From Deltaproteobacteria bacterium (GTDB lineage: Bacteria; Desulfobacterota; JAJRXV01): DNA of 23,566 nt. Below the pieces are notes generated by a model. It was not told the DNA's origin. It ran no database searches and saw only the letters and a program-made list of their open reading frames with translations. The position numbers and the translations under genes were made by a program. This document shows positions 1,682 through 19,906 of this stretch, one piece after another. Where the stretch lies: contig JAJRZU010000157.1 in NCBI GenBank assembly GCA_024275075.1, positions 1-23,566 of the forward strand, in the 5' to 3' direction. Position 1 is the first letter of the stretch. Every line of letters starts with the position of its first letter.

Positions 1682-2149
1682 ATGAATATTAGAGATCTAT
1701 TAAACGAAGAAAACATAATTGTAGACTTAAAGGCAACGCTAAAAACGGATGTCTTAAAGGAGCTGGCTACTAAATTAGTCTTGGCGAACCCTGATATTGA
1801 TCTGAATCTCTTGACCGAAAAATTAATCGAGCGGGAGAATCTGAGCAGTACCGGTATTGGGGAGGGTATCGCTATACCGCACTGTAAGTATCAGAACCTC
1901 GGGGGGATACTTATGTCGTTTGGAAGAAGCCTGGCGGGCGTTGATTTCGATTCCATTGACAAAAGGCCGGCAAAGATATTCTTCTTGCTGGTCGCGCCGG
2001 ACACACCAAAGGCGGCCGGTGAGCACTTGCGCACATTAGCGAAAATCACGAGGATATTAAAAAGCAGTGACTTTAGAGATGCCTTGATGTCTGTGGCGAC
2101 CGAGAAGGAAATCTATAAGATGATCGCGATAGAAGATGAGAAATTTTAG
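1682..2149 (+). CDS. ptsN: PTS EIIA-Ntr nitrogen regulatory protein (fructose/mannitol-type EIIA domain)
   Basis: 155 aa with the GIAIPHC active-site His motif of PTS EIIA type 2. It occupies the standard position between hpf and hprK/rapZ. Stop is TAG. Confidence 0.8.
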   Translation: MNIRDLLNEENIIVDLKATLKTDVLKELATKLVLANPDIDLNLLTEKLIERENLSSTGIGEGIAIPHCKYQNLGGILMSFGRSLAGVDFDSIDKRPAKIFFLLVAPDTPKAAGEHLRTLAKITRILKSSDFRDALMSVATEKEIYKMIAIEDEKF

Positions 2150-2173
2150 GCTAAAGTCAGGAAAGCAAGGTTG

Positions 2174-3121
2174 ATGAATTCCATTTCGGTAGAGGAATTA
2201 CTAAAAGAGAAGGGTAAAGATTTTCATTTACAACTCACCGAAGCGGATAAAGGTCTGACCAACAAAATATCCACGCCAAGGATCCAGAAACTTGGCATAG
2301 CCTTAACCGGTTATACCAAATTCCTGCGCCCTAACCGCATACAGATAATCGGGAACACGGAATTATCATACCTTAAGACGCTTGCTCCGCCAGAAAGAAA
2401 GGAGCGGATAAAAAAGGTCTGCGGCAAAGAAGATATCGCCGCGTTTGTCATCACGAAGAATCTGCGGATCCCGAAATTTCTACTCCAGCAGGCGAAGAGC
2501 CAGAAGATACCGGTGCTCAGGACATCTGCGGATACTGCCGCATTCATTACTATCATTACAAGGTATTTAGAAGATGTGCTCTCGCCTTCTACCGTCATAC
2601 ATGGTGTTTTACTTGAGATATTTGGTGTCGGGACGCTTCTGATCGGCAAATCCGGTATCGGTAAAAGTGAGAGCGCGTTAGACCTAGTGCTAAAGGGACA
2701 TCGGCTCGTTGCTGACGATATTGTAAATATAAAGAAGAGGGCGCAGACAGTCCTTCTCGGGGCGGGCGCGGAGCTGATCAAGCATCACATGGAGGTTCGC
2801 GTGCTGGGCATCATCAACATCAAGGACCTGTTCGGCAGCGCTTCTGTCAAGGATATCCAGAAGATAGAGCTTGTCATATATTTATCTGAATGGGATAATA
2901 TGAAAGAATACGACAGGCTTGGTATCGATGAGGAGCAGTATAATATCCTTGATGTTAAGATGCCATTATTGAATATTCCTGTTACGCCAGGCAGGAATAT
3001 GACGACGATCATAGAGGTGGCGTGCAGAAACTTCCTGCTCAAGCAGATGGGTTGCAACTCTGCGCTAAACTTCCATAATGAACTACTGAAGCGGATTCAG
3101 GAAAAAACACTGCATGAATAG
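2174..3121 (+). CDS. hprK: HPr kinase/phosphorylase
   Basis: P-loop GKSGIGKSE. The HprK C-terminal catalytic-domain motifs (LIGKSGIGKSE...ADD, HHMEVRV.GI) are conserved. Length is about 315 aa. The ORF table starts at TTG 2171 and the first ATG is at 2174. Confidence 0.85.
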   Translation: MNSISVEELLKEKGKDFHLQLTEADKGLTNKISTPRIQKLGIALTGYTKFLRPNRIQIIGNTELSYLKTLAPPERKERIKKVCGKEDIAAFVITKNLRIPKFLLQQAKSQKIPVLRTSADTAAFITIITRYLEDVLSPSTVIHGVLLEIFGVGTLLIGKSGIGKSESALDLVLKGHRLVADDIVNIKKRAQTVLLGAGAELIKHHMEVRVLGIINIKDLFGSASVKDIQKIELVIYLSEWDNMKEYDRLGIDEEQYNILDVKMPLLNIPVTPGRNMTTIIEVACRNFLLKQMGCNSALNFHNELLKRIQEKTLHE

Positions 3122-3992
3122 CATTAATATTGTCATAGTAACAGGTCTTTCGGGCTCGGGGAAGTCCACTGTTCTAAAAGTCCTTGAGGATTTAGGGTTC
3201 TTTTGCGTCGATAACCTGCCTGTAGTTTTATTCAATAAATTCCTTGAGTTATGTACGCAGACCACCGGTAACCTGAACAAAGTCGCAATCGGTATGGATA
3301 TCAGAGAGAGGGATTTCTTCAAAGATTACCCCTTGACTTTTAAGGAGTTAAGGGAGGCCGGCTATGATTTTGAGCTGATGTTTTTAGACTGTTCCAGCGA
3401 TGTCATTCTAAGGCGGTTCAGCGAAACGCGCCGCAAACACCCGTTAGAAGGCGGGGGCTCTGTACTTGACAGCATATCAAGGGAAAGACTCAAATTAGCG
3501 GAACTAAAGGATATTGCTACAAAAATAATAGATACGACAAAAATAAACGTTCACGAGCTGAAAAACGAGGTGCGAAAATACTACTCGGATTATTCATCAC
3601 TGCACGCGATGAAGATCACATTGGTATCGTTCGGTTACAAAAATGGCGTACCGACCCCGGCGGATATTGTTATTGATGTGAGGTTCATGACCAATCCATT
3701 CTTTGTCCCTGAGTTAAAGCACCTGACCGGTCTGGATCAAGAGATACGCGATTTCTTGTTTAAAGACAATGATATCGCAAATAGTTTTATCGATAAGTTC
3801 CTCGATTTCCTGAGCTTTTTGATACCGCTGTATGAAAAAGAGGGGAAAAAGTACCTGACGATCGCTATTGGTTGCACAGGTGGCCAGCACCGGTCCGTAG
3901 CTGTTGTGAACAACATATCATCATTGCTGAAAAAAGATTATGAAGAAATAATTGTCACACATAAAGATTTGATTTATAATAAGGAAAAATGA
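3114..3992 (+). CDS. rapZ: RNase adapter protein RapZ (YhbJ/YvcJ family P-loop NTPase)
   Basis: N-terminal Walker A VTGLSGSGKST and the C-terminal domain of the YhbJ family. It overlaps the hprK stop, and ATGA overlaps the next gene. Confidence 0.85.
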   Translation: MNSINIVIVTGLSGSGKSTVLKVLEDLGFFCVDNLPVVLFNKFLELCTQTTGNLNKVAIGMDIRERDFFKDYPLTFKELREAGYDFELMFLDCSSDVILRRFSETRRKHPLEGGGSVLDSISRERLKLAELKDIATKIIDTTKINVHELKNEVRKYYSDYSSLHAMKITLVSFGYKNGVPTPADIVIDVRFMTNPFFVPELKHLTGLDQEIRDFLFKDNDIANSFIDKFLDFLSFLIPLYEKEGKKYLTIAIGCTGGQHRSVAVVNNISSLLKKDYEEIIVTHKDLIYNKEK

Positions 3993-4309
3993 AAGGGAAC
4001 TCGCTTATGGTAGGTATCGTAATCGTAACTCACGGGGAGCTCGCCCACCACCTATTAGAGACGGCAAAAGGCATTGTGGGCGAAGCCAGGCAGGTTGCGA
4101 CGCTCTCTGTCTCTGCTAATAAAGAGATTGCAAAGATAAGGAGTGATCTTTCTGACGCGATTCAAAATGTCGATACGGGTGACGGGGTGTTGATACTGAC
4201 CGATATGTTCGGGGGGACGCCGTCAAACATCAGCCTCTCTTTCTTGAACGAGAAGGAGGTTGAGGTTGTGACAGGGGTCAACCTGCCGATGCTTATAAAG
4301 CTCCTATAG
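3989..4309 (+). CDS. PTS mannose/fructose/sorbose-family EIIA component, interrupted by an in-frame TAG at 4307-4309 (the open part is 106 aa)
   Basis: MVGIVIVTHGELAHH contains the EIIA-Man phosphorylatable His. The ORF stops at TAG 4307-4309. The same frame continues for 41 more codons that resemble the EIIA-Man C-terminus, reaching TGA 4433-4435. See the next feature. Confidence 0.75.
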   Translation: MKGNSLMVGIVIVTHGELAHHLLETAKGIVGEARQVATLSVSANKEIAKIRSDLSDAIQNVDTGDGVLILTDMFGGTPSNISLSFLNEKEVEVVTGVNLPMLIKLL

Positions 4310-4435
4310 ATGCAAGAGAAGAACGAGCTATACTCGCTGGCAAAGAAGATAGAGGTATATGGCAAGAATAACATATACTTAGCAAGTGAAATTCTAAAGA
4401 GCAGGATCGATGTTTCAAAGGGTGGGGAAAATTGA
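4310..4435 (+). other. C-terminal 41 codons of the EIIA-Man gene, in the same frame directly after the internal TAG
   Basis: 4310-4432 encodes MQEKNELYSLAKKIEVYGKNNIYLASEILKSRIDVSKGGEN. It is in frame with 3989 and ends at TGA 4433-4435. That stop overlaps the TTG start of the EIIB gene at 4432, so the ATTGA junction is coupled. The combined length of 147 aa matches a normal EIIA-Man. Confidence 0.6.
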
Positions 4436-5615: not shown

Positions 5616-5625
5616 CAGGTGGAAA

Positions 5626-6423
5626 ATGGTTGTCATTGTAAAAAAGAAGATGAGCTTATTGTTGCTGATGAGGGTACTCGTAAGGAGTCTCTTTATCCAG
5701 TCCGGCTGGAATTTCAAGAAGATGCAGAACCTCGGATTCGCGTTCAGCATCATACCGGCGCTCAAGAGGATATATGGCGATAAGAGCGAGGAGTTGCAGG
5801 CGGCGGTAAAAAGGCACCTTATCTTCTACAATTCTCATCCGTACCTCTCGGCGCCTATATTAGGCGCCACGATCAGCCTTGAGGAGGAGTATAAACTAAC
5901 GGGCGCCGGTATGGAGAACATAAATATCTTCAAGAACAGCATGATGGGTATATGCGGCGGGGTAGGGGACACTTTCTTTTGGGGCGTTGCAAGACCCGTT
6001 GCAGGTTTGTTAGGCGTTATATTGGCGCTCACGGCATATAACATATACGCACCGGTTGCATGTCTCGTATTATATAACATCGTTCATCTGACTTTCAGGG
6101 CGGCTACTTTTTTTTCCAGCTACAAAAACGGGACAGCAGTGACTAAGACAATAATGAAGATCAATCTGAGGACGCAGACGCAAAGACTCAAGAAGCTGGA
6201 GATAGTGTTACTCGGTGCGCTTTTGGCGTTGATAAAAAATAAATTTGTCATTTGCAACTTTGATGTGGTAACTTATAATTTTATCGCGATTTTATTGTTT
6301 ATTTTGATTTTTTTCATTTTATACTTTTTAATTAACAAAAATATTAGTCCGGCGCTGATTGTATATATAGCGGTAACTGCTGTAATATTAATTAGTTATA
6401 TATATAATTCATCGCTCGCTTAA
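5626..6423 (+). CDS. PTS mannose-family EIID membrane component
   Basis: SGWNFKKMQNLGFAFSIIPALKRIY...HLIFYNSHPY...APILGATISLEE aligns along its length with ManZ-type EIID. An RBS (caggtgg) precedes ATG 5626. The ORF table start at 5518 is an upstream in-frame extension that overlaps EIIC. The AT-rich 3' end encodes extra TM helices. Confidence 0.8.
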   Translation: MVVIVKKKMSLLLLMRVLVRSLFIQSGWNFKKMQNLGFAFSIIPALKRIYGDKSEELQAAVKRHLIFYNSHPYLSAPILGATISLEEEYKLTGAGMENINIFKNSMMGICGGVGDTFFWGVARPVAGLLGVILALTAYNIYAPVACLVLYNIVHLTFRAATFFSSYKNGTAVTKTIMKINLRTQTQRLKKLEIVLLGALLALIKNKFVICNFDVVTYNFIAILLFILIFFILYFLINKNISPALIVYIAVTAVILISYIYNSSLA

Positions 6424-6435
6424 CAAGGGAGTTAT

Positions 6436-6708
6436 ATGGAATACGCAGAGATTTTTGAGATTAAGAACAAATTAGGGCTTCATGCGAAGGCAGCGGGGCT
6501 TTTTGTGCAGACGACAAACAAGTTCACCGCCGATTTTTACGTGAAAAAAGATGACATAGAGGTGAACGGTAAGAGCATTATGGGGCTTATGATGTTAGCG
6601 GCCGCGAAAGGGAGCAGGATTTTAGTCAGAGCCAGCGGCAGTGATGCGAAAGAGGGTTTAACTGAGATAAGAGAGCTTATTTTAAGAAAATTCGATGAGG
6701 AAGAATAG
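6436..6708 (+). CDS. ptsH: phosphocarrier protein HPr
   Basis: 90 aa with His15 in GLHAKAA and Ser46 in NGKSIMGLM, the HprK target. Ends with tandem stops TAG TAA. Confidence 0.85.
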   Translation: MEYAEIFEIKNKLGLHAKAAGLFVQTTNKFTADFYVKKDDIEVNGKSIMGLMMLAAAKGSRILVRASGSDAKEGLTEIRELILRKFDEEE

Positions 6709-6713
6709 TAAAT

Positions 6714-8489
6714 ATGAAACATGGAAATAAAATGTATAAGTTGCAGGGTATCGCTGTTTCCCCGGGGATTGTTACCGGTAAGGCGTACCTTTTGGACAGG
6801 AAAAGGGTAAGGCACATTGAAAAGCCGATAAAGGTGGAGAGTGTCGAGCATGAGACCCAAAGGTTCTTAGAGGCGGTTGAGAATTCAAAGAATCAGTTGA
6901 TATCCATTAAAGACAAAATAGCAGGCAGTAAAAGCAAAAAGCCGATCGGGCACGGGCATCTTTATATTATTGATATTCACCTGATGTTCTTAGAAGATAA
7001 GATGCTCATTGACGAAACGATAAATACGATCAGGAAGAAAGAGATAAACGCTGAATGGGCGCTGCGGCTGGTCGTAAAAAACATCCAAAAGGTATTTGAT
7101 AATATCGAAGACGAGTACTTCAAGGAAAGAAGTAGTGATATCATGCACATATCCGAGAGGATTATGAGGAATCTTGTCGGTAAGGAGGAGCAGAGCATTA
7201 TTGAGATCGATGAGGAGATCATAATAATCGCTCACGACCTCTCGCCGGCTGACACTGCACAGATGGCGCTTAACAAGGTAAAGGGGTTCCTCACCGATAT
7301 CGGTAGCAAGACCTCGCATACGGCGATTATGGCGCGCTCTTTGAAAATCCCCGCGATTGTCGGTTTAGAGCGTATAACTGACGTCATAAATGGCGGTGAC
7401 ATAATCATCATCGACGGGATCAGCGGGACGGTGATCATAAATCCGAACGCTGCCACGATAAAAGAGTATGACCAGAAGAAGCTAAACTACGATGAGTATG
7501 AGAAAAAGCTTTTTGTATACAAGAAATTGCCCGCTGTCACGAAGGACGGCAGGAGGATAATCCTAAGCGCAAATATTGAGCTGATTGACGAGATACCGAC
7601 TACCATTGAATATGGCGCCGAGGGGATCGGGTTATATAGAACAGAATTTCTGTATATGAACCGCAAGAATCTCCCTACCGAGGAGGAGCATTTTGAGGTG
7701 TACAAGAACCTCGTTGACGGCATCTCGCCATACCCGATCACAATAAGAACGCTTGACTTAGGCGGTGACAAGTTCATCTCCCAGATACAGCTGGCTGACG
7801 AGATGAACCCGGCAATGGGGCTAAGGGCAATCCGGTTCTGCCTCAAAGAGAAACAGATTTTCAAGACCCAGCTTCGGGCAATACTGCGCGCCAGCCATTA
7901 CGGTGAAATAAAGGTGATGTTCCCGATGATCTCTGGTATCCCTGAGATACGCGAGGCGAAGGGCATATTAGAAGAGGTGAAAACATCCCTTAAGCACGAC
8001 AAGACACCATTTGACGAAAATATTCAGGTCGGTATCATGGTGGAGATTCCCTCGGCCGTGACAATCGCGGATCTACTCGCAAAGGAGGTCGGGTTCTTCA
8101 GCATCGGGACTAACGATCTCATCCAGTACTCTCTGGCTATCGACAGGGTCAACGAACATGTCGCCTACCTGTACGAGCCATTGCATCCGGCTCTGCTCCG
8201 CACGATCAAGCACATCGTGGATACCGCCCATAATGCCGGTATCTCTGTCAGCATGTGCGGCGAGATGGCTGGTGAGCAGGAGTATATTCTCGTTCTACTG
8301 GCGCTCGGGCTCGACCAGCTCAGTATGAACTCGATGTCAATCCCGCGTGTTAAGAAGATCCTGCGCTCATCAAAGTACCATGACGCCAACGAAATTCTAA
8401 ATAACTGCTTCAAGATGTCTACCACCTACGAGATCGAAAAATATGTCCGACAGGAAATGCACACGATGTTCCCCGACGATTTTTCGTAG
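6714..8489 (+). CDS. ptsI: phosphoenolpyruvate-protein phosphotransferase (PTS Enzyme I)
   Basis: 591 aa. The N-terminal region IAVSPGIVTGKAYLL and the phospho-His domain (TSHTAIMARSLKIPAIVG), PEP-binding domain and C-terminal TIM-barrel motifs (GTNDLIQYSLAIDR, SMCGEMAG) are conserved. Confidence 0.9.
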   Translation: MKHGNKMYKLQGIAVSPGIVTGKAYLLDRKRVRHIEKPIKVESVEHETQRFLEAVENSKNQLISIKDKIAGSKSKKPIGHGHLYIIDIHLMFLEDKMLIDETINTIRKKEINAEWALRLVVKNIQKVFDNIEDEYFKERSSDIMHISERIMRNLVGKEEQSIIEIDEEIIIIAHDLSPADTAQMALNKVKGFLTDIGSKTSHTAIMARSLKIPAIVGLERITDVINGGDIIIIDGISGTVIINPNAATIKEYDQKKLNYDEYEKKLFVYKKLPAVTKDGRRIILSANIELIDEIPTTIEYGAEGIGLYRTEFLYMNRKNLPTEEEHFEVYKNLVDGISPYPITIRTLDLGGDKFISQIQLADEMNPAMGLRAIRFCLKEKQIFKTQLRAILRASHYGEIKVMFPMISGIPEIREAKGILEEVKTSLKHDKTPFDENIQVGIMVEIPSAVTIADLLAKEVGFFSIGTNDLIQYSLAIDRVNEHVAYLYEPLHPALLRTIKHIVDTAHNAGISVSMCGEMAGEQEYILVLLALGLDQLSMNSMSIPRVKKILRSSKYHDANEILNNCFKMSTTYEIEKYVRQEMHTMFPDDFS

Positions 8490-8837: not shown

Positions 8838-9953
8838 TTATAGCAAACTCATAAGGCGGTCGCACTCTGATATCGTATTATAAAAATGTGGTGAGAGTCG
8901 GATCGCGTTGTCCCGGTGCGCGACATTGCAATTATTACCGATAAGCTTTGCGTACAATCTCTTAGTCTCACGATCCTTCGGTACGAAACTGACGATGCCG
9001 GATTTCTCGCCGTCGTCCCGCCTTGGTGAGATTATGGAACACCCAATCCTTCTGAGATTATCGGCGAGATAATCTGTCAGCTCCAAAACAGCGCTCCGTA
9101 CTTTGCTCTGTGTCACTTCTTTCTGTAGCCTAAGTGACCCTCTAACCGCGTGGATACCGAGCATATTCATGCTACCCTCCTCAAAACGCGAGGCGTCGGG
9201 CTTCAGCGTCATACCATAATCCAGGTAATCATCGGAGTTTACTACGCTGGTGTAACCGAGATTTGTCACGTTAAGGATGTCCAAGTTATCGGATTTACAG
9301 TAGAAGAAGCCGACACCCTCGGGGCCTAACAGCCATTTATGCGAGTCCGCCGCCAGAAAGTCGATGTTATCCCTTTTTACATCGATATCAAAAACGCCCA
9401 TGCTTTGGATAGCATCGACAAAGAAGAGAGCGCCTCGTTTTTGCAGCTCACGCCCGAGCTCCTCGAGGTTGACCCTGAAACCGTTTGTAAACTGAACGTG
9501 GCTTATGCTGACGAGCCTTGTTCGTGAATCGATGAGGCCTAAGATATCCTTGATGAGGACGCGACCGGCTGACCACTTGACAAACCTTACATCGACGCCC
9601 TTACGCTTCAGGTTCAGCCATGGGTAAACGTTCGCCGGGAACTCTTTTTCAGGGATGATGACATTGTCGCCATCCTTGAAATCGATGCCGTTCGCGGCTA
9701 ACAAGATACCTGAAGTAGTATTATTTACAATAGCGATTTCATTAGCGTTTGCGCCTATCATGTCAGCCGCCATGCCGCGCGTTTCTTCTACATTAGATAG
9801 CCATTTTCTGTAATGAATACTACCGGTATGAAGGTATTCTTCGAGGAATTTGTTAAGATATTCCAGGGTGAATGTATTCATCGGGGAGACAGCCGCGTGA
9901 TTAAAATATATATAATTATCAGCTACTAAGAAGTGTTTCCTATATTCATTCAT
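8838..9953 (-). CDS. aminotransferase class V-fold PLP-dependent enzyme (cysteine desulfurase / isopenicillin-N-epimerase-like)
   Basis: 371 aa. It has the YFNHAAVSP N-terminus and a PLP lysine motif in SHKWLLGPEGVG. It sits 10 nt downstream of the GT4 gene on the same strand. Confidence 0.7.
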   Translation of the reverse strand: MNEYRKHFLVADNYIYFNHAAVSPMNTFTLEYLNKFLEEYLHTGSIHYRKWLSNVEETRGMAADMIGANANEIAIVNNTTSGILLAANGIDFKDGDNVIIPEKEFPANVYPWLNLKRKGVDVRFVKWSAGRVLIKDILGLIDSRTRLVSISHVQFTNGFRVNLEELGRELQKRGALFFVDAIQSMGVFDIDVKRDNIDFLAADSHKWLLGPEGVGFFYCKSDNLDILNVTNLGYTSVVNSDDYLDYGMTLKPDASRFEEGSMNMLGIHAVRGSLRLQKEVTQSKVRSAVLELTDYLADNLRRIGCSIISPRRDDGEKSGIVSFVPKDRETKRLYAKLIGNNCNVAHRDNAIRLSPHFYNTISECDRLMSLL

Positions 9954-9963
9954 AACGTTTGCA

Positions 9964-10242
9964 TCACCCTTTCGCGGTCACTTTCTTCATAAAATCGGTG
10001 AACTCCACTTTGAACCTATCCGCTGAAAACCGCCTGGCATTCTCGATAATATCCTCGCACGCGAACCCGCCCTGCCCTGCTTCGAATCTCTTGACCGCGT
10101 CAACAAGGCTCTCGATCGTCTGGGAGTCAAAGAATATGCCCGTCTTACCGCTTATGACCGTCTCGGTGGCGCCACCCTTCCCGAACGCGATGACGGGTGT
10201 TCCACACGCCTGCGCCTCAACGGGTACGATACCGAAATCCTC
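9964..10242 (-). other. C-terminal 92 codons of the same GT4 gene, in the same frame directly after the internal TAA
   Basis: The - strand translation [41 protein letters not shown]... is the conserved GT4 catalytic C-terminus (EX7E motif). It is in frame with 10243..11076 and ends at TGA 9964-9966, 10 nt before the aminotransferase start. Confidence 0.65.
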
Positions 10243-11076
10243 TTACGCGGCGAATATGAACGCTTTCGCCCGCAGCATATAGTCACTCAAGGCATCGGCG
10301 CTCTGGTATCCCATGAGCTTGACATTCTTGCCCGCCTTCGCTTTCACCTTCTTTATGTCAGGCCCGTCACCAATGACGACGAGCTCCTTGTCTGGCATCG
10401 TCGAAAAAGCTTCCACTATCAAGTCCATCTTCTTATACGGTACCATCCGTGACGCAGCGAGGTAGAAACCAGCTTTCTCCGTATCAAGGACAGTAGCTGA
10501 ATCCATAATATTAACAGGTGGATATATAACGGTCGCGTCTTTGTTGTAGATCTTCTTGATCCTGCCTGCGGTATATTTTGAGTTCGCGATATAGTGATCG
10601 ACCCTGTTTGCGGTAGTAGCGTCCCAAATCCGCACATAATGCAGGATCGCCTTCGCCATCATCGCTTTTATGCCTCTGGTCAACCCCGCCTCCCTGAGAT
10701 ACTGGTGATACAAATCCCACGCGTAGCGCATCGGTGTGTGGCAGTAGCAGACGTGCGTCTGGTTGGAGCTGACAAGCGCGCCCTTCGCGACCGCGTGAGA
10801 TGACGAGATGACCAGATCGTACCCGGACAGGTCGAACTGTTCGATAGCAAACGGCATCAGCGGCAGGTATGACCGGTACTTGCGCTTCGCAAAGGGCATC
10901 TTCTGCAAAAACGAGGTGTTAGTCGCCTTATCAAGGATAAATCCACGCCCACCCTCTGGCAGGAAATCGACAAGGCAGAATATATCCGCCTCGGGATAGA
11001 GAGAAACTATCTGCTCCAATACCCGCTCGGAACCGGCGTATGTCACGAGCCAGTCATGTACAATTGCAGTCTTCAT
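10243..11076 (-). CDS. GT4-family glycosyltransferase, N-terminal 277 aa up to an in-frame TAA at 10243-10245
   Basis: MKTAIVHDWL...GSERV is a typical GT4/GT-B N-terminal domain. The ORF stops inside the conserved EX7E region (..[26 protein letters not shown]..). Confidence 0.75.
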   Translation of the reverse strand: MKTAIVHDWLVTYAGSERVLEQIVSLYPEADIFCLVDFLPEGGRGFILDKATNTSFLQKMPFAKRKYRSYLPLMPFAIEQFDLSGYDLVISSSHAVAKGALVSSNQTHVCYCHTPMRYAWDLYHQYLREAGLTRGIKAMMAKAILHYVRIWDATTANRVDHYIANSKYTAGRIKKIYNKDATVIYPPVNIMDSATVLDTEKAGFYLAASRMVPYKKMDLIVEAFSTMPDKELVVIGDGPDIKKVKAKAGKNVKLMGYQSADALSDYMLRAKAFIFAA

Positions 11077-11091
11077 AGCTGTAAGTATACT

Positions 11092-11110
11092 ACACTACTT
11101 ATTATTTTCC
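11092..11110 (-). promoter_or_regulatory. candidate sigma-70 promoter for the GT4/aminotransferase operon (-35 TTGACG 11110-11115, 17-nt spacer, -10 TAGTAT 11087-11092); implies a near-leaderless mRNA
   Basis: The - strand reads TTGACG-N17-TAGTAT-acttacagct-ATG. There is no SD sequence before the ATG at 11076. Confidence 0.3.
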
Positions 11111-11159
11111 GTCAAGCAATATGTACCATCAAGATGGATTATAGGGTTAGCGCCGCTGA

Positions 11160-11183
11160 TTTTGTGTTAATATTGACACAAAA
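11160..11183. promoter_or_regulatory. perfect inverted repeat TTTTGTGT-N8-ACACAAAA, a candidate operator upstream of the GT4 operon
   Basis: 8-bp perfect arms separated by TAATATTG. It lies 45 bp upstream of the candidate -35 of the - strand GT4 gene. Confidence 0.35.
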
Positions 11184-11205
11184 CACTCAAGCGGGCGCGT
11201 AGGGT

Positions 11206-11247
11206 AATACAAAAACAGATGGGCAAGCTCATACGCTTGCCCATCTG
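11206..11247 (-). terminator. intrinsic terminator downstream of lpxC
   Basis: The - strand reads CAGATGGGCAAGC-gtatga-GCTTGCCCATCTG, with 13-bp perfect arms, followed by TTTTTGTATT. Confidence 0.7.
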
Positions 11248-11364
11248 AATGAAAAGACATCTAAACAGGGCTTTTCGCCCACAATGGTTACAACAAAGGA
11301 GATCAAAAATTTACTATGTATGTTTTACTATGTATGTTTCAATGTACTATTTTTACTAAAAATT

Positions 11365-12282
11365 TTACTGTGTGCTTAAAGCCAGCTCACCGTGAGCATG
11401 TGAATAGCGCTTGACCTTCTCTTTACTCTTGATCCTGACGATCTCATACTTGTCTTTTTGCGCCAGTACCTTCTTAGCCAATGTATGATTGAGCGTATGA
11501 CCGGATTTATCCGCGAGGAAGTGCCCGACAATCGGTTTCCCGATGAGCGACAAGTCACCGATCGCGTCTAATATCTTGTGCCGGACAAACTCATCCTTGT
11601 ACCTAAGCCCGTCTTCGTTCAAGACCCTGTACTTGTCCAGAACGACTACATTATCCAATGTACCGCCCTTCGCGAGACCCTGCTTCTTCAGGATATTCAC
11701 CTCGTCTAAGAACCCGAAAGTCCGCGCGTTCGCGATCTCTTTCTCAAAGTTCCTGACAGAGAATTTTAAAAGGTACGACTGGGCTGATATTACAGGGTTG
11801 TTGAACTCTATGTTGAAATGTATCTTAAAATCATTTGAAGGTAAGAGATAGGCTTTCTTGTCGCCGTCTCTCACTTTGATCGGCTTCTTGATGCGGATGT
11901 ACTCACGCTCACGCTCCTGCGTCATCGCACCAGCCATCTTGATAAGGTGCACGAAAGGAGCCGCGCTGCCATCCATGATCGGTACTTCATCGGAGCTGAC
12001 TTCCACTATCGCGTTATCTATCTTAAGACCGGAAAATGCCGCTAACAGATGCTCCACTGTCGATATCCTGTGACCGTCTTTTGCGATAGTCGTCGCGTGG
12101 TTCGTCATAACGACATTATCGGCAATAGCCTTTATCTCCGGTCGCGACGGGATATCGCTGCGTATGAATATTATACCGTCATCCGCGCCGGCAGGCCTTA
12201 TCACCAGATCGATCTTCTTACCGGTGTGGAGCCCGATACCCGAACACTTTATCTGTCTTGCTACAGTTCTTTGTAAAGGCAT
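11365..12282 (-). CDS. lpxC: UDP-3-O-acyl-N-acetylglucosamine deacetylase
   Basis: 305 aa. MPLQRTVARQIKCSGIGLHTGKKIDLVIRPA matches the LpxC N-terminus, and the conserved HKILDAIGDL and GHTLNH motifs are present. An RBS (aagggga) precedes the ATG. Confidence 0.9.
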   Translation of the reverse strand: MPLQRTVARQIKCSGIGLHTGKKIDLVIRPAGADDGIIFIRSDIPSRPEIKAIADNVVMTNHATTIAKDGHRISTVEHLLAAFSGLKIDNAIVEVSSDEVPIMDGSAAPFVHLIKMAGAMTQEREREYIRIKKPIKVRDGDKKAYLLPSNDFKIHFNIEFNNPVISAQSYLLKFSVRNFEKEIANARTFGFLDEVNILKKQGLAKGGTLDNVVVLDKYRVLNEDGLRYKDEFVRHKILDAIGDLSLIGKPIVGHFLADKSGHTLNHTLAKKVLAQKDKYEIVRIKSKEKVKRYSHAHGELALSTQ

Positions 12283-12321
12283 AACATTTTCCCCTTATAC
12301 ATAAGTGCTGTACAGTGATTG

Positions 12322-12337
12322 AGCAATTAATGTGCCA
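12322..12337 (-). promoter_or_regulatory. candidate sigma-54 (-24/-12) promoter upstream of lpxC: TGGCAC-ATTAA-TTGCT
   Basis: The - strand sequence TGGCACATTAATTGCT has GG-N10-GC spacing with a perfect -24 TGGCAC and a -12 TTGC. The predicted TSS is about 30 nt upstream of the lpxC ATG. It overlaps a TTGACA-N17-TATTGG sigma-70-like arrangement. Confidence 0.4.
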
Positions 12338-12458
12338 ATAATGCGGCTGTCAGGAGATGTCAAGTAAATACAGTGTATTACAAGATATTATTGTAAGAGG
12401 GGTCTTTTTTCGCATATCGCGATCGGCCATATCGTTGCAATAATACAACACTTTCAGA

Positions 12459-12731
12459 TTAAATATTAGCATTTATGCAACAGAAAGCGGGTAGTAGGCT
12501 GGGCAGGTTTTTTTGCCCATCAACATCAACAAAGGTGACATAGCCCTCGGGCGGTTCGTCGGTGTTATCAGTGTCTCCTTCACCTTCTTCGCCGCCACCT
12601 GTATCTGCTTCGTACATGCTCTCATGGTCGCCGAACCCGTCACCGTCCACGTCCGCGTAATATGTTACGGCTGCATCTTCTTCAGCAGTATCGGCAGTAG
12701 TCTCGCCGCTCGTGCTCTCAAGACAGCTCAT
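12459..12731 (-). CDS. possible small acidic protein with a DxDxDG calcium-binding-like motif (YYADVDGDGFGD); uncertain
   Basis: 90-codon ORF with coding-like GNN periodicity and pI about 3. The RBS is poor and the 3' end overlaps an inverted repeat. It lies in an otherwise non-coding 560 bp between lpxC and tRNA-Arg. Confidence 0.25.
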   Translation of the reverse strand: MSCLESTSGETTADTAEEDAAVTYYADVDGDGFGDHESMYEADTGGGEEGEGDTDNTDEPPEGYVTFVDVDGQKNLPSLLPAFCCINANI

Positions 12732-12847
12732 AGTAAAGGAAATAGTGATTGTCCTTTCTTTTTTCGACCGAGCCGCGACCGATTTTGTAATATTAATGAA
12801 TATCGATGGTTACGGGCGGATCCCTATTAGATTGAACTCTGCGTTCA

Positions 12848-12924
<77 letters not shown>

Positions 12925-12984
12925 ACAATAATATAAACAATACATTCGGCAGGTTATGCATCATGTCTGATATTTTACTTTAGA

Positions 12985-13013
12985 TGTATATCATTTTAAT
13001 TATAATATGTCAA
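12985..13013 (-). promoter_or_regulatory. candidate sigma-70 promoter for tRNA-Arg (-35 TTGACA 13008-13013, 17-nt spacer, -10 TATACA 12985-12990)
   Basis: The - strand reads TTGACA-N17-TATACA, with a leader of about 55 nt before the mature tRNA 5' end. Confidence 0.4.
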
Positions 13014-13017
13014 ACAG

Positions 13018-13092
13018 TTTATTCCATCGCGATGGTTTCTAGTTTATTCCATCGCGATGGTTTCTAGTTTATTCCATCGCGATGGTTTCTAA
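13018..13092. repeat. three tandem 25-bp repeats (TTTATTCCATCGCGATGGTTTCTAG), each containing the perfect 12-bp palindrome CCATCGCGATGG
   Basis: Three head-to-tail copies; the third ends in A instead of G. The array abuts the -35 of the tRNA-Arg promoter candidate and lies 3' of the - strand operon that ends at 13109. Confidence 0.9.
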
Positions 13093-13108
13093 GTTCTCAT
13101 TACCTGAT

Positions 13109-13432
13109 CTATTGTGTGTCGCCACTCTCACTCTTTAGCCTAATACCGGTGCTTTGCCCCGCCGAGATTGCATTATCATCAGCCGTATTATGGTATGGGT
13201 TCTCCGATGCAGTTATTCGCGTCAACGCCGCCTCGATATTCGAGATGGATTTGTTCATCCTGATAAGCTGGCGATATGATTCATTCAGGATCGACTTCAT
13301 CTTGAATACAGCTAATGGCAGAACTATCCACATGACTATAAGCAGGAAAAACAAGAAGATAAGGAAAAAGCTAAGGAGGCTGAAAGAGCCCTGCGTAAAT
13401 ATCTTTATAAAGTCTATTTCATTCGCCATCAT
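13109..13432 (-). CDS. small single-pass membrane protein with a C-terminal coiled-coil or disordered tail (hypothetical)
   Basis: 107 aa. It has a hydrophobic segment LLSFFLIFLFFLLIVMWIVLPLAVF. It overlaps the upstream gene by 4 nt (ATGA), which suggests it is co-translated with the TPR/beta-helix protein. Confidence 0.5.
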   Translation of the reverse strand: MMANEIDFIKIFTQGSFSLLSFFLIFLFFLLIVMWIVLPLAVFKMKSILNESYRQLIRMNKSISNIEAALTRITASENPYHNTADDNAISAGQSTGIRLKSESGDTQ

Positions 13433-14748
13433 CGCTCTATTGCCTTGATATCCTCATTATTGTCATCATAATAATTGTTTATAACATTTACGGTATCAAC
13501 TTTTGATATCCCGATATTATTACTGATAAAGTCATTCGCGTCTATCTCCGCCTTCGATGAGTCGGCGGCGGTAATACCGGTGATAATATTCTCAATAAAT
13601 TTGTTCTGGTAAATCCTTGGCGATGAGTTCTTGACAGAATTGATACCTATCTTGTTCTTTATGAACTCATTCTGGTTAATAAGCGCTTTTGAGTTTCCGG
13701 TCATCGAGATCCCAAGCTTGCACTCTTTAAAGCCATTTTCATATATCTTAGGGAATGATTTATCATAAGTACCAACACCGCAGTTGTTCTGCTCAAAAGT
13801 GTTCTTAGCAATCTCAGGCTTCGAGGAGTCATAGGTCTTAATACCGTAATTGTTCTTTGTAAAATTGTTGTTGATTATATTACTTTTCATGGCACCATCG
13901 CACTCGATCCCTGTCTCGTTTCTATAAAAGATATTATAATCAATAGATACTTTCGATTTGTCAATGAACTTGACAGCGACATCGTTCTTTAAAAATATGT
14001 TGTTCTTAAACAATAATTTCGGGTTACCTTTTATAACGACAGCATTTTTCGCTCTTTCAAATTTAGAGTGCTGTAAGATCGACATTTTACTGCCATCGAA
14101 GATGAGACCGCCCCAAAGCCCGATCCGCTTTGTCGTCAGGTCTTCAAAAGAATTTGAGAAGAGAATCTGGTTCTCTTTCGTCCCTTGCGCGATCAGTGTA
14201 CCACGAACGATAAGTGAGCTGAACCCCTTTGTATCCTCACTCTTCAGATATGGTATTTTTTCGTCACGCCGGCTGGACAATGGCGCGAACATCACTAATG
14301 AACCAGGTTTTATCGTAAGCACAATGTTTTTTGGTATTGTAACATCACCATCGATGAGTATCCAGCCATCCCAGACCTCATATGTCTTCATAGTACCCAC
14401 TGTAGTCGGTTTCGAGAGTACTTTTGCCATATCCCTGATCAGCTTCTTCGCGCTTTTAAGCATCTTCTTGTCAGAGGAAACTTTCAGGAACGTATCAAGG
14501 CTCTTAACGGCAGAAGGGTAGTCTTTGATATGTTTATAAGCTAACCCGAGGTTAAAATAAACATTTATGCTGCTTTCGCTTAATTTCGCCGCTTCTTCAT
14601 AAGCCTTTATCGATTCTTTATAAAGCCCGTCCTTGTAAAAGGCGTTACCATCTTTTATAAGCTCTGAGTAGCTTTTGGCGTACAGCGTACCAGATAAAAA
14701 CAAGGTGAGCAACGAGAAATAAATAAATATTCGTGATACTTTTTTCAT
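13429..14748 (-). CDS. secreted TPR-repeat plus right-handed parallel beta-helix repeat protein
   Basis: 439 aa. A signal peptide (MKKVSRIFIYFSLLTLFLSGTLYA) is followed by TPR-like repeats (AYEEAAKL, YFNLGLAYKHIKDY). About 22-residue repeats rich in N/I/G/K (NNNFTKNNYGIKTYDSS, FEQNNCGVGTYDKS, NEFIKNKIGINSVKNS) are typical of PbH1/NosD-like beta-helices. Confidence 0.6.
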   Translation of the reverse strand: MKKVSRIFIYFSLLTLFLSGTLYAKSYSELIKDGNAFYKDGLYKESIKAYEEAAKLSESSINVYFNLGLAYKHIKDYPSAVKSLDTFLKVSSDKKMLKSAKKLIRDMAKVLSKPTTVGTMKTYEVWDGWILIDGDVTIPKNIVLTIKPGSLVMFAPLSSRRDEKIPYLKSEDTKGFSSLIVRGTLIAQGTKENQILFSNSFEDLTTKRIGLWGGLIFDGSKMSILQHSKFERAKNAVVIKGNPKLLFKNNIFLKNDVAVKFIDKSKVSIDYNIFYRNETGIECDGAMKSNIINNNFTKNNYGIKTYDSSKPEIAKNTFEQNNCGVGTYDKSFPKIYENGFKECKLGISMTGNSKALINQNEFIKNKIGINSVKNSSPRIYQNKFIENIITGITAADSSKAEIDANDFISNNIGISKVDTVNVINNYYDDNNEDIKAIER

Positions 14749-14891
14749 CTTTTACTCCCGATTTTAATGAAATAAGTCAAACAATAACTCATTAAATTTA
14801 CTTATATCTTCATGGCAAACATCATACTTCCATATCATATTACGTAGCCTATTAGTCAGATAACGCATACAAGTCCGCTGAAATTTGCCAT

Positions 14892-14920
14892 ATTCTATTA
14901 CATATAATCAAAACAATCAA
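14892..14920 (-). promoter_or_regulatory. candidate sigma-70 promoter (-35 TTGATT 14915-14920, 17-nt spacer, -10 TAGAAT 14892-14897) for the TPR/beta-helix gene
   Basis: The - strand reads TTGATT-gttttgattatatgtaa-TAGAAT in the 176-bp gap between the SPFH gene and the TPR gene. Confidence 0.3.
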
Positions 14921-14924
14921 TCAT

Positions 14925-16634
14925 TTATTTTTTTCGTACCGGCTTTGGTGCAGCCGCCTTCATCCCCTGCAACAGATTGCTCGCGCCAAGTATCGCGGCG
15001 GCGCCCTGAATACCACCGTCAGCGCCCTGGACATACACGTTTGGTACCTTGACAATCTCGGGTTGCTCAACAGCCGCCTGCAATATCTTTTCTAATATAC
15101 TAAGCTGCATAACACGGGCTTCACCAAGTACTTTAGCCTGCGCTTTTTGCCCTGCGGCGATCTCAAGGAGCCTTAACTTCTCACCTTCGCCCTGCTTTTG
15201 TAACGCCAGTTTCTTCTGTTCGGCTATCTTCACCTCCATCTCCGCCGCGACAAGATTAGGCTGCTGGTCAGCTTCCGCCCGTGACTTCTCGCTTTTTATC
15301 CTTTCGTCCTGAGCGATCTTCTCCTGCTCATAGGCTTTCTTGAGCTGCCCTGCAAGTTGTTCCCTTTGCCGCGCGGTAAGCAGCTCTGGGGGGATGCCCG
15401 GATCACCGAACCGGATCTCCTTGATAGAGACGCCCGCCTTGTCACCCTCGGGTCTTATCTGCTCCTCTACCTTGTCCTCAAGCTCACCACGCTTGTCCTG
15501 AAGGTCAAACACCTTCATCCCCTCTTCGCTGACGACGTTTCGTACGACGCTCCTTATGGCCGGCGTAAGGATCTTGTCCTCTATCTGCTGAAGGCCGCCG
15601 ACAGAAGCGACGACAAACGGCGCGTTCTCCGGCGCCACCTGCACCAACACGCGCAAATCAAGCGGTATCTGCCAACCCTCGACCCGTACGAGTATCGCCG
15701 GATCCGCGGCGTCTTGTGGTACCGGGAACGGCATCTCTCTCTCCTTTTGCGTTATCTCGCCCTTCTGGTTGACAATAAGGTCGATCTGCCTCTTCGTATA
15801 ACCACCGATGTATTCCCACGCCTGCACCAATGTCGATATCTTTGTCAGATGATACGCTCTTTTGTTCAGATAATACATGCCCGGATAAAGCGGCTCATCC
15901 CATACGCCGATACAGCCCTTCGGTACTAACGGTACAGAAAGAGAGCCCTCTTGTGAAACGTGTGTCGGCACACATTTATCGACCTCCTGGACGTTTGATT
16001 TGACAACGCCCACTTCACCGGCGCTGATACTCGTCGCCTCCTCGATCTGCACGTCAAACAGATAGCGGTTCAGCCGGTACATCCCTGGTTTCAGTACGCT
16101 TAGCTGGGCGCCCTTCTGCCCGCCGTTTTTCAGAAAGTACTCCGCGTTGAGCATTTCCTGGAAGTTCTCTTCAGCCCAACCCGCGGCGAGAAACTGCCCC
16201 TTCTTCAGCGGCAGCCCGTCCTTTGCGGTAAGAAGACCATATTTCCCTTCGGGTATGCTGAGAAGTGGATATTCCTCAATCTCATACATCAGATTCAAAA
16301 GAAGCTCAAAATGGAATCCCGGTGCCAGCACCCTCCCCTGAGGGCCGTTTTCGCGGTTAAAGGCGATCACCTGCCCCGCCGGCATGCTCCCCCCGCCATA
16401 TACCCTCTTTAAGTGCCCTACCTTGTTCGAATCGATGATTACGAACGATGTGCTCATGATAGCGGCCAGTGCGAGCACCACGCCCGCTATCCTCGAACCA
16501 TACCTGCCCCACTTGACATAATTAAGCCTGTTGGCGTCGACCGCCACTCCCTGCACAACACTTTGTGTAAAAAACATTTGACCTAGAAAGAATACCGCGA
16601 CTGCGATCAGTAACAAAAGTAATGTTGGTGCCAT
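14925..16634 (-). CDS. SPFH/band-7 domain, flotillin-like membrane protein
   Basis: 569 aa. An N-terminal TM helix is followed by an SPFH-like core (RVLAPGFHFELL). A long C-terminal charged E/A/K/Q-rich coiled coil (ARQREQLAGQLKKAYEQEKIAQDERIKSEKSRAEADQQ) is typical of bacterial flotillins (YqiK/FloT-like). The RBS is gggagg. Confidence 0.5.
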   Translation of the reverse strand: MAPTLLLLLIAVAVFFLGQMFFTQSVVQGVAVDANRLNYVKWGRYGSRIAGVVLALAAIMSTSFVIIDSNKVGHLKRVYGGGSMPAGQVIAFNRENGPQGRVLAPGFHFELLLNLMYEIEEYPLLSIPEGKYGLLTAKDGLPLKKGQFLAAGWAEENFQEMLNAEYFLKNGGQKGAQLSVLKPGMYRLNRYLFDVQIEEATSISAGEVGVVKSNVQEVDKCVPTHVSQEGSLSVPLVPKGCIGVWDEPLYPGMYYLNKRAYHLTKISTLVQAWEYIGGYTKRQIDLIVNQKGEITQKEREMPFPVPQDAADPAILVRVEGWQIPLDLRVLVQVAPENAPFVVASVGGLQQIEDKILTPAIRSVVRNVVSEEGMKVFDLQDKRGELEDKVEEQIRPEGDKAGVSIKEIRFGDPGIPPELLTARQREQLAGQLKKAYEQEKIAQDERIKSEKSRAEADQQPNLVAAEMEVKIAEQKKLALQKQGEGEKLRLLEIAAGQKAQAKVLGEARVMQLSILEKILQAAVEQPEIVKVPNVYVQGADGGIQGAAAILGASNLLQGMKAAAPKPVRKK

Positions 16635-17516: not shown

Positions 17517-17750
17517 CCCCCAGAATAAAAAAATGTGGAATTATTATGACTTATATCTGAACATGATTAAATATTGTGCAAATATTTTTTACTTCGTTGT
17601 TATTACTACGTTATTTAGATTGCATATATTTTAAGCAAAATGCTGTTTTTCTCTATTTTATGCTGTTAAACCAGCCTCACTAACAATGAATTGCACATGT
17701 TATCAACAGTTTTTGTCAATAAATACTCATTATCGATACCGGTGTATTTC

Positions 17751-17766
17751 AACAGGCGCGCCTGTT
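17751..17766. other. perfect 16-bp GC-rich palindrome AACAGGCGCGCCTGTT (hairpin)
   Basis: It lies 50 nt 3' of the - strand gene ending at 17818. It is followed on the + strand by TTTTAT. It may act as a terminator or processing hairpin, or as a protein-binding site. Confidence 0.4.
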
Positions 17767-17817
17767 TTATCTCTGTGTTTGATTCCCCGCATCCCGCCAT
17801 TGAAAAAATCAGCGGAA

Positions 17818-18504: not shown

Positions 18505-19449
18505 TCAGTCACCTTTTTTCAGATATTTGAGCGCGTCACCAACGGTGAATAAAGAACCTGAGACAAAGATAATCGAGCCGTCCTCGTACAGGTCATACGC
18601 ACGATCCAACGCGCTTTTGACATCAGGTACACTTATCACATTCGCGTCGCTTTCAAAGCCGGTTAGCAGTTTATTCGGGTCCGCCGCGCGGTTTATCGCC
18701 GGTTTGGTCAGGATGACGGTATCAGACACGCCGCACACGCGCTTTAGTATGCCCGCGGTATCCTTGTCACTCATCACACCGATAACGCTTATGATCCTCT
18801 TACCCGCGAAGTTAGCCTTGAGCGTATCGATCGCGGTGCGCATCGACGCGTCATTATGCGCGCCATCTAATATAAGAAGCGGATCGTCAGAAAAGAGATC
18901 GAACCGCCCCGCCCACTTCACGTCGCCAAGCCCGCTTCGTATGCTCCACTCCCCCACCAAAAAGCCGCTACCCTCAATCAGTTCGGTCGCGGCTATCGCC
19001 AGTGAGAAGTTGTCAAACTGGTGCCCACCCATGAGGCTCTTCTTGATACCGCTGTACGATCTGTTGATACCGGTATAATCAAACGTATCCGCACCGATCT
19101 TCGTATACGTAAAATCGCGGTGGAGCTGGTACACCTTCGCGTCCATAGCATCCGCGGCAGCCTCGATGACTTCCCGCGCCCGCTCATCATTTACGCCTGA
19201 GATAACCTCCGCGCCCCTTTTTATGATACCCGCTTTCTCCTTCGCGATCTTTGCTATTGTGTCGCCAAGGTAGCGCTGGTGCTCCATCGATATGCTCGTC
19301 AAAACGCTCACTGTAGGCGTTACAACGTTTGTCGCGTCGAGCCGCCCCCCCATACCGGTCTCTATCACCGCGATATCCACTCCCTTTAACATGAAGTAAT
19401 AAAACGCTATTGCAGTAGTATACTCAAAAAAAGTTATCTCGCAATCCAA
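18505..19449 (-). CDS. folC: bifunctional folylpolyglutamate synthase / dihydrofolate synthase, C-terminal 314 aa (after an in-frame TAG at 19510-19512)
   Basis: ETGMGGRLDATNVV, AKEKAGIIK and ILDGAHNDAS are Mur-ligase/FolC motifs. It is in the same frame as the N-terminal fragment. Confidence 0.85.
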   Translation of the reverse strand: MDCEITFFEYTTAIAFYYFMLKGVDIAVIETGMGGRLDATNVVTPTVSVLTSISMEHQRYLGDTIAKIAKEKAGIIKRGAEVISGVNDERAREVIEAAADAMDAKVYQLHRDFTYTKIGADTFDYTGINRSYSGIKKSLMGGHQFDNFSLAIAATELIEGSGFLVGEWSIRSGLGDVKWAGRFDLFSDDPLLILDGAHNDASMRTAIDTLKANFAGKRIISVIGVMSDKDTAGILKRVCGVSDTVILTKPAINRAADPNKLLTGFESDANVISVPDVKSALDRAYDLYEDGSIIFVSGSLFTVGDALKYLKKGD

Positions 19450-19512
19450 ATTAAGCGCGGCTTTCTTCTCCCGAATGATTCGGGTAATGTCGATAACGCT
19501 CGCATCGTCGAT

Positions 19513-19779
19513 CTAGCCGCCGCCCGCGCGTATCCTCTCATTAAAATCGATAAGGTGGGGAGAAGTGTACAGACCGACTCTATAGCCGCTCTTTGTCAGC
19601 ATGGACTCTATCGCGGCGGCGGTAGACCCTTTCCCGTTAGTACCGGCGATGTGGATAGTCTTGTATTTTTCCTGCGGGGAAGAGAGGGCGGCGAGCAGCT
19701 TACGAATATTTGTGAGCCCGAGCTTGATACCGAATTTCTGCAGGTTGAAAAGATAATCGATCGTCTCTTTGTAATCCAT
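19513..19779 (-). CDS. folC: folC N-terminal fragment (ATP-binding P-loop region), ending at an in-frame TAG
   Basis: MDYKETIDYLFNLQKFGIKLGL...HIAGTNGKGSTAA...YTSPHLIDFNERIRAGGG* matches the FolC N-terminus, including the GTNGKGST P-loop. The ORF table starts at TTG 19815; ATG 19779 aligns better with FolC N-termini. Confidence 0.8.
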   Translation of the reverse strand: MDYKETIDYLFNLQKFGIKLGLTNIRKLLAALSSPQEKYKTIHIAGTNGKGSTAAAIESMLTKSGYRVGLYTSPHLIDFNERIRAGGG

Positions 19780-19820
19780 CAAATCATTTCTTTGCCGGTC
19801 GATGCTGATAAACAAAACAG

Positions 19821-19877
19821 GCGCTTAGTGAAATACAGGGCGCTTAGTGAAATACAGGGCGCTTAGTGAAATACAGG
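19821..19877. repeat. three tandem 19-bp repeats (GCGCTTAGTGAAATACAGG) between the cytochrome c gene and folC
   Basis: Three perfect head-to-tail copies lie 40-100 nt upstream of the folC start on the - strand. They are followed by the 8-bp inverted repeat CAGGGCGC...GCGCCCTG. Confidence 0.9.
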
Positions 19878-19906
19878 GTATACTATTCATTACAATGCGC
19901 CCTGCC

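Follow-up and report, generated by a model that had tools for sequence, protein, structure and literature searches.

Three in-frame stop codons, one of them within a conserved GT4 glycosyltransferase gene, in a single deltaproteobacterial contig

We found that a conserved GT4 glycosyltransferase gene of a deltaproteobacterial contig is interrupted by a single in-frame TAA directly in front of its EX7E motif, and that two other genes of the contig carry equally clean in-frame stops. A one-base nonsense interruption of a glycosyltransferase is an ordinary pseudogene or an ordinary sequence error, and it calls for no new mechanism. Our tentative reading, which we put a little short of an even chance, is that the stops are base errors of the 8-oxoG type fixed in the deposited consensus and that the real GT4 gene is intact and functional. 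All positions refer to the window, the whole stretch of 23,566 nucleotides that was analysed (contig JAJRZU010000157.1, assembly GCA_024275075.1).

Results

A single GT4 gene interrupted at codon 278

The GT4 reading frame (9964..11076, minus strand) has 370 codon positions including the internal TAA. Translation gave 277 sense codons (10246..11076), the TAA at codon 278 (10243..10245), 92 further codons (9967..10242) and a terminal TGA (9964-9966). The first 277 codons encode the N-terminal Rossmann domain in full and the C-terminal domain as far as its first strands, and they are the only part of the gene translated under the standard code (ORF 10243..11076). The last 92 carry the C-terminal helices and the EX7E motif, E279-DFGIVPV-E287 (10216..10242), which lies directly downstream of the TAA. 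The first-pass annotation had placed the stop exactly one codon before EX7E; the translation, which reads around the break as it was written there, and the alignment of E279-x7-E287 both bear this out.

We used profile searches to ask how the two parts relate. With the stop masked as X, residues 200-349 of the 370-aa product matched positions 13-171 of the 172 in PF00534 (Glycos_transf_1) in a single stretch, at 102.7 bits against a gathering cut-off of 26.4 bits. Searched separately, the N part matched profile positions 13-99 (33.5 bits) and the C part positions 103-171 (60.6 bits). PF13439 (Glyco_transf_4) was found at residues 57-189 (38.6 bits, cut-off 28.5 bits). Since the PF00534 match runs unbroken across the stop, both halves belong to one protein. 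The profile alignment that the first-pass annotation had proposed as a check is therefore continuous, its description of a clean stop without a frameshift holds, and the N- and C-terminal parts align to the same proteins. The read-through product aligned to hundreds of intact proteins of 365-382 aa at 62-69% identity over 97-100% of its length, so chance cannot account for its continuity. In an alignment of 25 GT4 sequences there was no gap at the stop column, and E279, D280, F281, G282, I283, P285 and E287 were invariant.

The AF2 model of the read-through protein (pLDDT 83.9, pTM 0.83) has a GT-B fold with two Rossmann domains, and the TAA falls between strand 272-276 and the EX7E helix (283-290). 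Its best Foldseek matches were 5n80, MshA (3c4q), HepE (4xsu) and BshA (6d9t), all with a probability of 1.00 and query TM-scores of up to 0.71; GlgM and PimA/PimB' were also matched. Both Pfam domains, the EX7E motif and the GT-B model thus agree with the GT4 assignment made at first reading. No NCBIfam equivalog cut-off was reached by the protein, the best being BshA (46.6 bits vs 273.7). The segment 9964..11076 is a single gene for a retaining GT4 enzyme of the GT-B fold, with its predicted activity and sugar specificity left unassigned by profile.

Compared with the retaining GT-B enzymes of CAZy family GT4 (WbaZ-type mannosyltransferases, the LPS-biosynthesis enzyme 5n80, MshA, BshA, HepE, PimA/PimB'), the window protein has the same two-domain Pfam architecture and the invariant EX7E, and its predicted fold agrees with the solved structures (query TM-score 0.6-0.7). 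It differs from them by the interruption at codon 278, and its identity to any solved structure is 13-19%.

Under the standard code, translation of GT4 would stop at residue 277. The product would be without the EX7E donor-binding helix, the C-terminal helices and what else remains of the C-terminal Rossmann domain; judging from the GT-B fold, we expect such a fragment to have no activity. Translation would also leave out the 279 nt behind the stop, and by polarity this could lower expression of the aminotransferase gene that begins 10 nt further downstream.

A split enzyme, in which the 277-aa and 92-aa pieces are made separately and assemble into an active GT-B fold, can be imagined. Stand-alone GT4 C-terminal domains exist, and the best PDB sequence match of our protein, 2f9f (the C-domain of the WbaZ-1 mannosyltransferase, a chain of 177 residues), aligns to query residues 203-339 only, that is solely to the C-terminal domain. 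However, the domain linker is near residue 195, whereas the break interrupts the C-terminal Rossmann domain itself, after strand 272-276, which makes such an arrangement implausible. Nor can the C-terminal piece be made alone: it lacks a usable start codon and ribosome-binding arrangement, and of ATG, GTG and TTG the first to occur in frame is a GTG 14 codons from the end. No minus-strand ORF of at least 60 aa was found within the post-stop region, and no GT4 orthologue is split at codon 278. We give a split enzyme next to no weight.

Genomic context and conservation of the gene

The GT4 gene is followed by a gene for a class-V aminotransferase of the SufS/cysteine-desulfurase-like type (8838..9953, minus strand; PF00266, 169.7 bits), which scored below every NCBIfam equivalog cut-off. 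As the first-pass annotation had described, translation showed 92 conserved codons after the stop and a TGA at 9964-9966, 10 nt ahead of the ATG (9953) of this co-oriented gene. The two genes are probably co-transcribed. Upstream of GT4 we noted a sigma-70-like promoter match, TTGACG-17-TAGTAT (11087..11115, minus strand), a consensus match of a kind no more numerous in the window than in shuffled sequence, and a strong terminator (11216-11247) follows lpxC. Taken together, the promoter-like match and the lpxC terminator suggest that GT4 and the aminotransferase may form a transcription unit of their own.

Syntenic relatives were located via a PtsI search. One of them, L086 (a 219-kb contig), has the exact gene order of the window, rpoN-hpf-ptsN-hprK-rapZ-EIIA-EIIB-EIIC-EIID-HPr-ptsI followed by convergent aminotransferase-GT4-lpxC, and its GT4 is intact at 368 aa. 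In L083, a Thermodesulfobacteriota MAG, the shared part is GT4-aminotransferase-ptsI, and here too GT4 is intact (365 aa). The GT4-aminotransferase pair is thus kept in both. More distant orthologues are found in polysaccharide clusters (O-antigen/EPS-type) together with Wzx-type flippases and other glycosyltransferases, whereas in the lineage of the window the gene stands alone beside lpxC and the class-V aminotransferase. On the strength of the synteny in relatives and of the polysaccharide-cluster context further afield, GT4 is a conserved and selected gene of this lineage, with a predicted role in cell-envelope glycan synthesis.

To see what the stop had replaced, we compared orthologous genome loci. 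The stop column is Glu in 75 of the 81 (GAA in 45, GAG in 30), Asp in three, and Gln, Lys and Val in one each. Among 24 aligned homologues it is Glu in 23 and Lys in the other. At the same position L083 has GAG and L086 has GAT. Since Glu occupies the column in 75/81 orthologues, the most parsimonious history appears to be a one-step GAA>TAA (Glu278>stop), a G>T on the coding strand and a C>A at plus-strand position 10245. The first-pass annotation had spoken of one replaced residue, commonly Tyr, Gln or Glu. A single residue is indeed replaced and Glu fits the column, but Tyr does not, and Gln, seen once in 81 loci, hardly counts as common.

An internal stop was found in none of the 81 orthologues, all of which have an uninterrupted full-length frame, as the GT4 of the window does not. 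Relative to the intact orthologues the window gene shows this one substitution and no other disabling change. An apparent internal stop in one orthologue (L022) proved to be its normal terminator, and long tblastn matches at some loci (e.g. L001), which had the look of disrupted orthologues, came from adjacent GT4 paralogues. The protein collection holds no near-identical GT4 sequence, and its 90% clusters are singletons.

Two further in-frame stops in the contig

Three clean in-frame stops, in GT4, folC and the gene for PTS EIIA-Man, and no frameshifts were found among the approximately 25 genes of the contig. The first-pass annotation had counted the GT4 stop as the second case in the window; it is one of three.

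The folC gene (18505..19779, minus strand) has a TAG at 19513-19515, for which the likely change is GAG>TAG (G>T). The protein aligned unbroken across the stop with PDB FolC structures and with 18 homologues. In the six closest relatives the stop column holds E, Q, N or D; more distant ones also have A, P, L or T. In L081, folC reads GAG ATC GAC where the window reads TAG ATC GAC, and the gene is intact in both L081 and L082. Separately, a Lactamase_B_3 gene present in these two relatives is absent from the window, a lineage-specific gene loss.

The EIIA-Man gene (3989..4435, plus strand) has a TAG at 4307-4309, which probably arose by TCG>TAG (C>A). PF03610 spans this stop (profile positions 1-115 of 116), and the 41 codons beyond it align well with homologues. 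The closest relatives have S/TCT, S/TCA or A/GCG at the position; L088, for example, reads KLLSMQEKND against KLL-stop-MQEKNE in the window. The gene is intact in L086, L087 and L088.

About 20 other ORFs that were scanned are uninterrupted, and each Pfam domain in them was detected near full length; three small ORFs match no family. The contexts of the three stops (GCG-TAA-GAG, GGC-TAG-ATC and CTA-TAG-ATG) gave no convincing shared motif or methylation context. The higher GC of GT4 and folC raised the question of horizontal transfer or a chimeric assembly. We rejected both, as GC3 is also 0.60-0.67 in several neighbours, the difference lies mostly in GC1/GC2, and both genes are syntenic in relatives.

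Genetic code, suppression and recoding

We next looked at how genes end in this contig. TAA terminates nine genes, TAG six and TGA eight, and the product lengths match those of the orthologues in L086, L087 and L088. Since all three codons end genes at orthologous positions, the contig uses the standard genetic code, and both global and partial reassignment were rejected. The in-frame stops amount to three in about 6,900 codons (~0.04%), whereas reassignment would need many across most genes. In known cases of stop reassignment or suppression (code 4/25 bacteria, TAG/TGA-recoded phages, pyrrolysine decoding) the likeness is that conserved genes contain in-frame stops. There, however, they number dozens per gene, while in the window they are rare, TAA, TAG and TGA all terminate, and no suppressor tRNA was seen.

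The first-pass annotation had hinted at a systematic cause such as recoding, which our results do not support: 15 other genes terminate in TAA or TAG, no orthologue has a stop at this position, and no RNA structure was found. For the last point, the 100 nt from each of the three stops were folded, and none gave a structure beyond that of shuffled sequences (z = -0.02, -0.87 and -1.31). An Rfam scan of the window returned no element besides a tRNA-Arg. A conserved stop, as expected of programmed recoding, is absent from all 81 loci (E, D, Q, K or V in its place) and from the 24 aligned proteins. Recoding of the Sec or Pyl type is also at odds with the codon itself, as Sec uses TGA and Pyl uses TAG and neither accounts for TAA. 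Reassignment of TAA is not known in bacteria. The presence of in-frame stops in conserved genes is the one observation that speaks for genome-wide TAA/TAG reassignment or for programmed recoding of the Sec/Pyl type; with 15 genes ended by TAA or TAG at orthologous positions, we consider these readings extremely improbable.

A natural suppressor deserves more attention. If the organism had an ochre-type tRNA, whose UUA anticodon decodes UAA as well as UAG, part of its GT4, FolC and EIIA would still be full length, and TAA/TAG nonsense alleles would be free to drift. In favour of this, each of the three stops belongs to the TAA/TAG pair that an ochre suppressor recognises. Also, the three genes are otherwise conserved, including after the stop, one of them is of an essential type, and none has a frameshift. 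However, 85% of the single-step nonsense paths in the three genes lead to TAA or TAG, so a pattern of three out of three is expected by chance (P = 0.62) and is uninformative as evidence for a suppressor. The contig does not shun TAA and TAG at gene ends, with 15 of 23 genes using them, nor do its genes show a pattern of back-up stops; were ptsN or EIID read through, they would be fused in frame to hprK or HPr. No relative shows such stops, the only tRNA in the window is Arg-TCG, and no structure follows the stops. We regard tolerance through such a suppressor as unlikely. Its wider version, an uncultivated Thermodesulfobacteriota-related lineage in which an ochre-type suppressor tRNA or some other leaky termination lets nonsense alleles be partly read through, seems to us just as hard to credit, if not slightly more so. 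If true, it would mean that a bacterium can live with two of its stop codons being decoded ambiguously at a low level. Neither programmed recoding nor suppression has any positive support in our data.

Age and mutational class of the stops

To gauge the age of the stops, we compared post-stop with pre-stop identity. The ratio was 0.862 for GT4, against 0.889 +/- 0.087 between intact homologues; for the other two genes it was 0.742 vs 0.743 and 0.662 vs 0.672 (intact homologues second). Departures at family-invariant columns were few (2 of 99 in GT4, 1 of 84 in folC) and within the range of other homologues. The window is as distant from L086, L087 and L088 as those three are among themselves. 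It has 157 private amino-acid changes against 114-181 in the three relatives, which is no significant excess in a comparison of low power at 65-80% amino-acid identity. Since the sequence after each stop is as conserved as in intact homologues, the stops are, by these comparisons, evolutionarily instantaneous: they are very recent mutations, or they are not real.

The three probable changes, GAA>TAA, GAG>TAG and TCG>TAG, all fit G:C>T:A. This class makes up 774 of the 2533 nonsense paths, giving p = 0.029 for three out of three. The shared class is suggestive of an 8-oxoguanine signature, in a set of just three events whose ancestral codons are taken from relatives 60-80% identical. Among private non-synonymous changes of a single step, G:C>T:A accounts for 19% in the window and 10-14% in the three relatives, a difference that is not significant in a low-power test; the corresponding test on private synonymous changes, also of low power, showed no G:C>T:A excess over the three relatives. 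If substitutions fell at random, it would take about 74 of them in 20.7 kb to yield three stops, a rate of 0.36% per base (95% CI 0.07-1.0%). The three stops in about 25 genes are equally recent, leave the frame intact and share a mutational class, which points to a cause that is contig-wide and not specific to GT4.

Discussion

Two explanations share most of the weight. The first is the one preferred above, errors in the consensus. The deposited GT4 would then have TAA in place of GAA at Glu278 through one G:C>T:A base change. The stop is private to this contig, and GT4, EIIA and folC are all intact in syntenic relatives. In E. coli, folC is normally indispensable. An error is favoured over real mutation for this reason, and also because three simultaneous fresh knock-outs without any other decay fit poorly with a viable lineage.

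Several points go against an origin by error. A rate of 0.36% per base would be a very poor consensus for a 23.5-kb contig without indel errors, being high for Illumina and odd for long-read data. In tests of low power, neither private changes nor G:C>T:A changes are significantly more frequent than in the three relatives. Oxidised guanine (8-oxoG) formed in library preparation is a documented source of G:C>T:A artefacts (Costello et al. 2013, PMC3616734), and the three changes proposed here are of the same class. Such artefacts are normally sub-clonal, at low allele fraction, and should not reach the consensus at normal coverage (PMC3616734), whereas the changes in the window are in the consensus, with ancestral codons deduced from relatives rather than observed. 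That library artefacts normally stay sub-clonal thus counts against the reading that we prefer.

The second explanation is that the stops are real and very recent nonsense mutations in the population, with GT4 a newly formed pseudogene that yields a dead 277-aa fragment. We consider this possible, though on balance doubtful, and lean slightly towards error over a fresh nonsense allele. The stops are, after all, present in the deposited sequence. A possible setting would be a mutator lineage deficient in GO repair (mutY/mutM-type) or relaxed selection, with folC and EIIA lost as well or made up for elsewhere in the genome. In vivo, mutY/mutM deficiency leaves a G:C>T:A signature, and all three events fit it. 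Glycosyltransferases for surface polysaccharides and PTS components are often dispensable, and the absence of Lactamase_B_3 indicates that the contig has undergone genuine lineage-specific loss. On the other hand, three fresh knock-outs in about 25 genes come to ~12%, which we judge to be far above normal pseudogene loads, and one of them is in the normally essential folC. Indels are usually about as frequent a source of bacterial pseudogenes as nonsense changes, yet none of the three is a frameshift. There is also no decay downstream of the stops, and no excess of private substitutions.

Bacterial genomes commonly contain in-frame stop polymorphisms that persist only briefly (Belinky et al. 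2021, PMC7918605), which speaks for real alleles. Like those young nonsense pseudogenes, the GT4 of the window has a single nonsense substitution with no surrounding decay, and its stop is not shared with related species (PMC7918605). The window differs in that three such stops fall within 23.5 kb, share a mutational class and include one in folC. Readings other than consensus error, real alleles and a suppressor together make up only a very small part of the probability.

These results are of use mainly as a flag: premature stops of the G:C>T:A type are unusually numerous in the contig, and probably in its MAG too. Three frame-preserving stops of one class among 25 genes suggest that the consensus is laden with errors or that the lineage is a mutator. 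Real genes will then be split or lost in automatic annotation, which is what has become of GT4, folC and EIIA in the public protein collection, where the 277-aa GT4 fragment is on record. If the stops are real and extend across the genome, the MAG would be an example of a natural G:C>T:A mutator or of tolerated nonsense.

In-frame stops in folC and PTS EIIA-Man and a point against leaky termination

The folC gene (18505..19779, minus strand), which is as a rule essential, was found to contain an in-frame TAG at 19513-19515 (minus strand). At this point the product reads ERIRAGGG*IDDASV, and homology runs contiguously on either side of the stop. The codon directly follows a (GGC)3 run (GCG GGC GGC GGC TAG), and relatives read V/I-N-x-x where the run is found.

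A third clean in-frame stop of the window, absent from the first-pass annotation, is a TAG at 4307-4309 (plus strand) inside the PTS EIIA-Man gene (3989..4435). In the alignment, the 41 codons past the TAG match the C-terminus of EIIA-Man homologues, and relatives carry Ser or Ala at the stop position.

Such stops could be read as leaky termination, with TAA or TAG partly read through by an ochre-type suppressor tRNA. Two pairs of neighbouring genes count against this reading here. ptsN, which ends in TAG, shares one frame with hprK (1682-3121), and EIID, which ends in TAA, shares one frame with HPr (5623-6708), in both cases without an additional stop in between. Read-through of TAG or TAA in this organism would therefore produce fused ptsN-hprK and EIID-HPr proteins.

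Gene content and order compared with relatives

In L081 and L082, two relatives with intact folC, a Lactamase_B_3 gene (245-251 aa) separates DUF6485 from a 227-aa gene adjacent to folC. All that the window has at this place is an AT-rich gap of 300 nt (17517-17817), in which no remnant ORF was found; this comparison of gene content indicates a lineage-specific gene loss. The order lpxC, GT4 and class-V aminotransferase, convergent with ptsI, is kept in the clade (8838-12282 in the window, 11991-15304 and 6001-8263 in the syntenic relatives L086 and L083, respectively). This conserved arrangement suggests that the GT4-aminotransferase pair acts on the cell envelope (LPS), outside any large O-antigen cluster.

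Small ORFs and tandem repeats

The 620-nt gap upstream of folC holds an unannotated-looking 86-aa ORF (19907-20167, minus strand) with an N-terminal hydrophobic segment and two apparent CxxCH haem-binding motifs (read by eye only, from the reverse complement), making it a candidate small dihaem cytochrome c. It is doubtful that an extremely acidic, D/E/G-rich 90-aa ORF (12459-12731, minus strand) is a gene: no family match was found for it and a 105-aa ORF overlaps it on the opposite strand.

Two perfect intergenic tandem repeats, a 19-nt unit GGCGCTTAGTGAAATACAG (3.1 copies, 19820-19878) just upstream of folC and a 25-nt unit AGTTTATTCCATCGCGATGGTTTCT (3 copies, 13016-13091) between tRNA-Arg and a 107-aa ORF, may be regulatory or repeat elements. 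A perfect 26-nt tandem array, AAGGGAGCCAAACGCTCCACCGAAAT (23375-23566; 7.4 copies, 99% identical), begins inside the DUF3857 gene, at its 3' end, and extends to the contig end, which makes it the probable cause of the assembly break.
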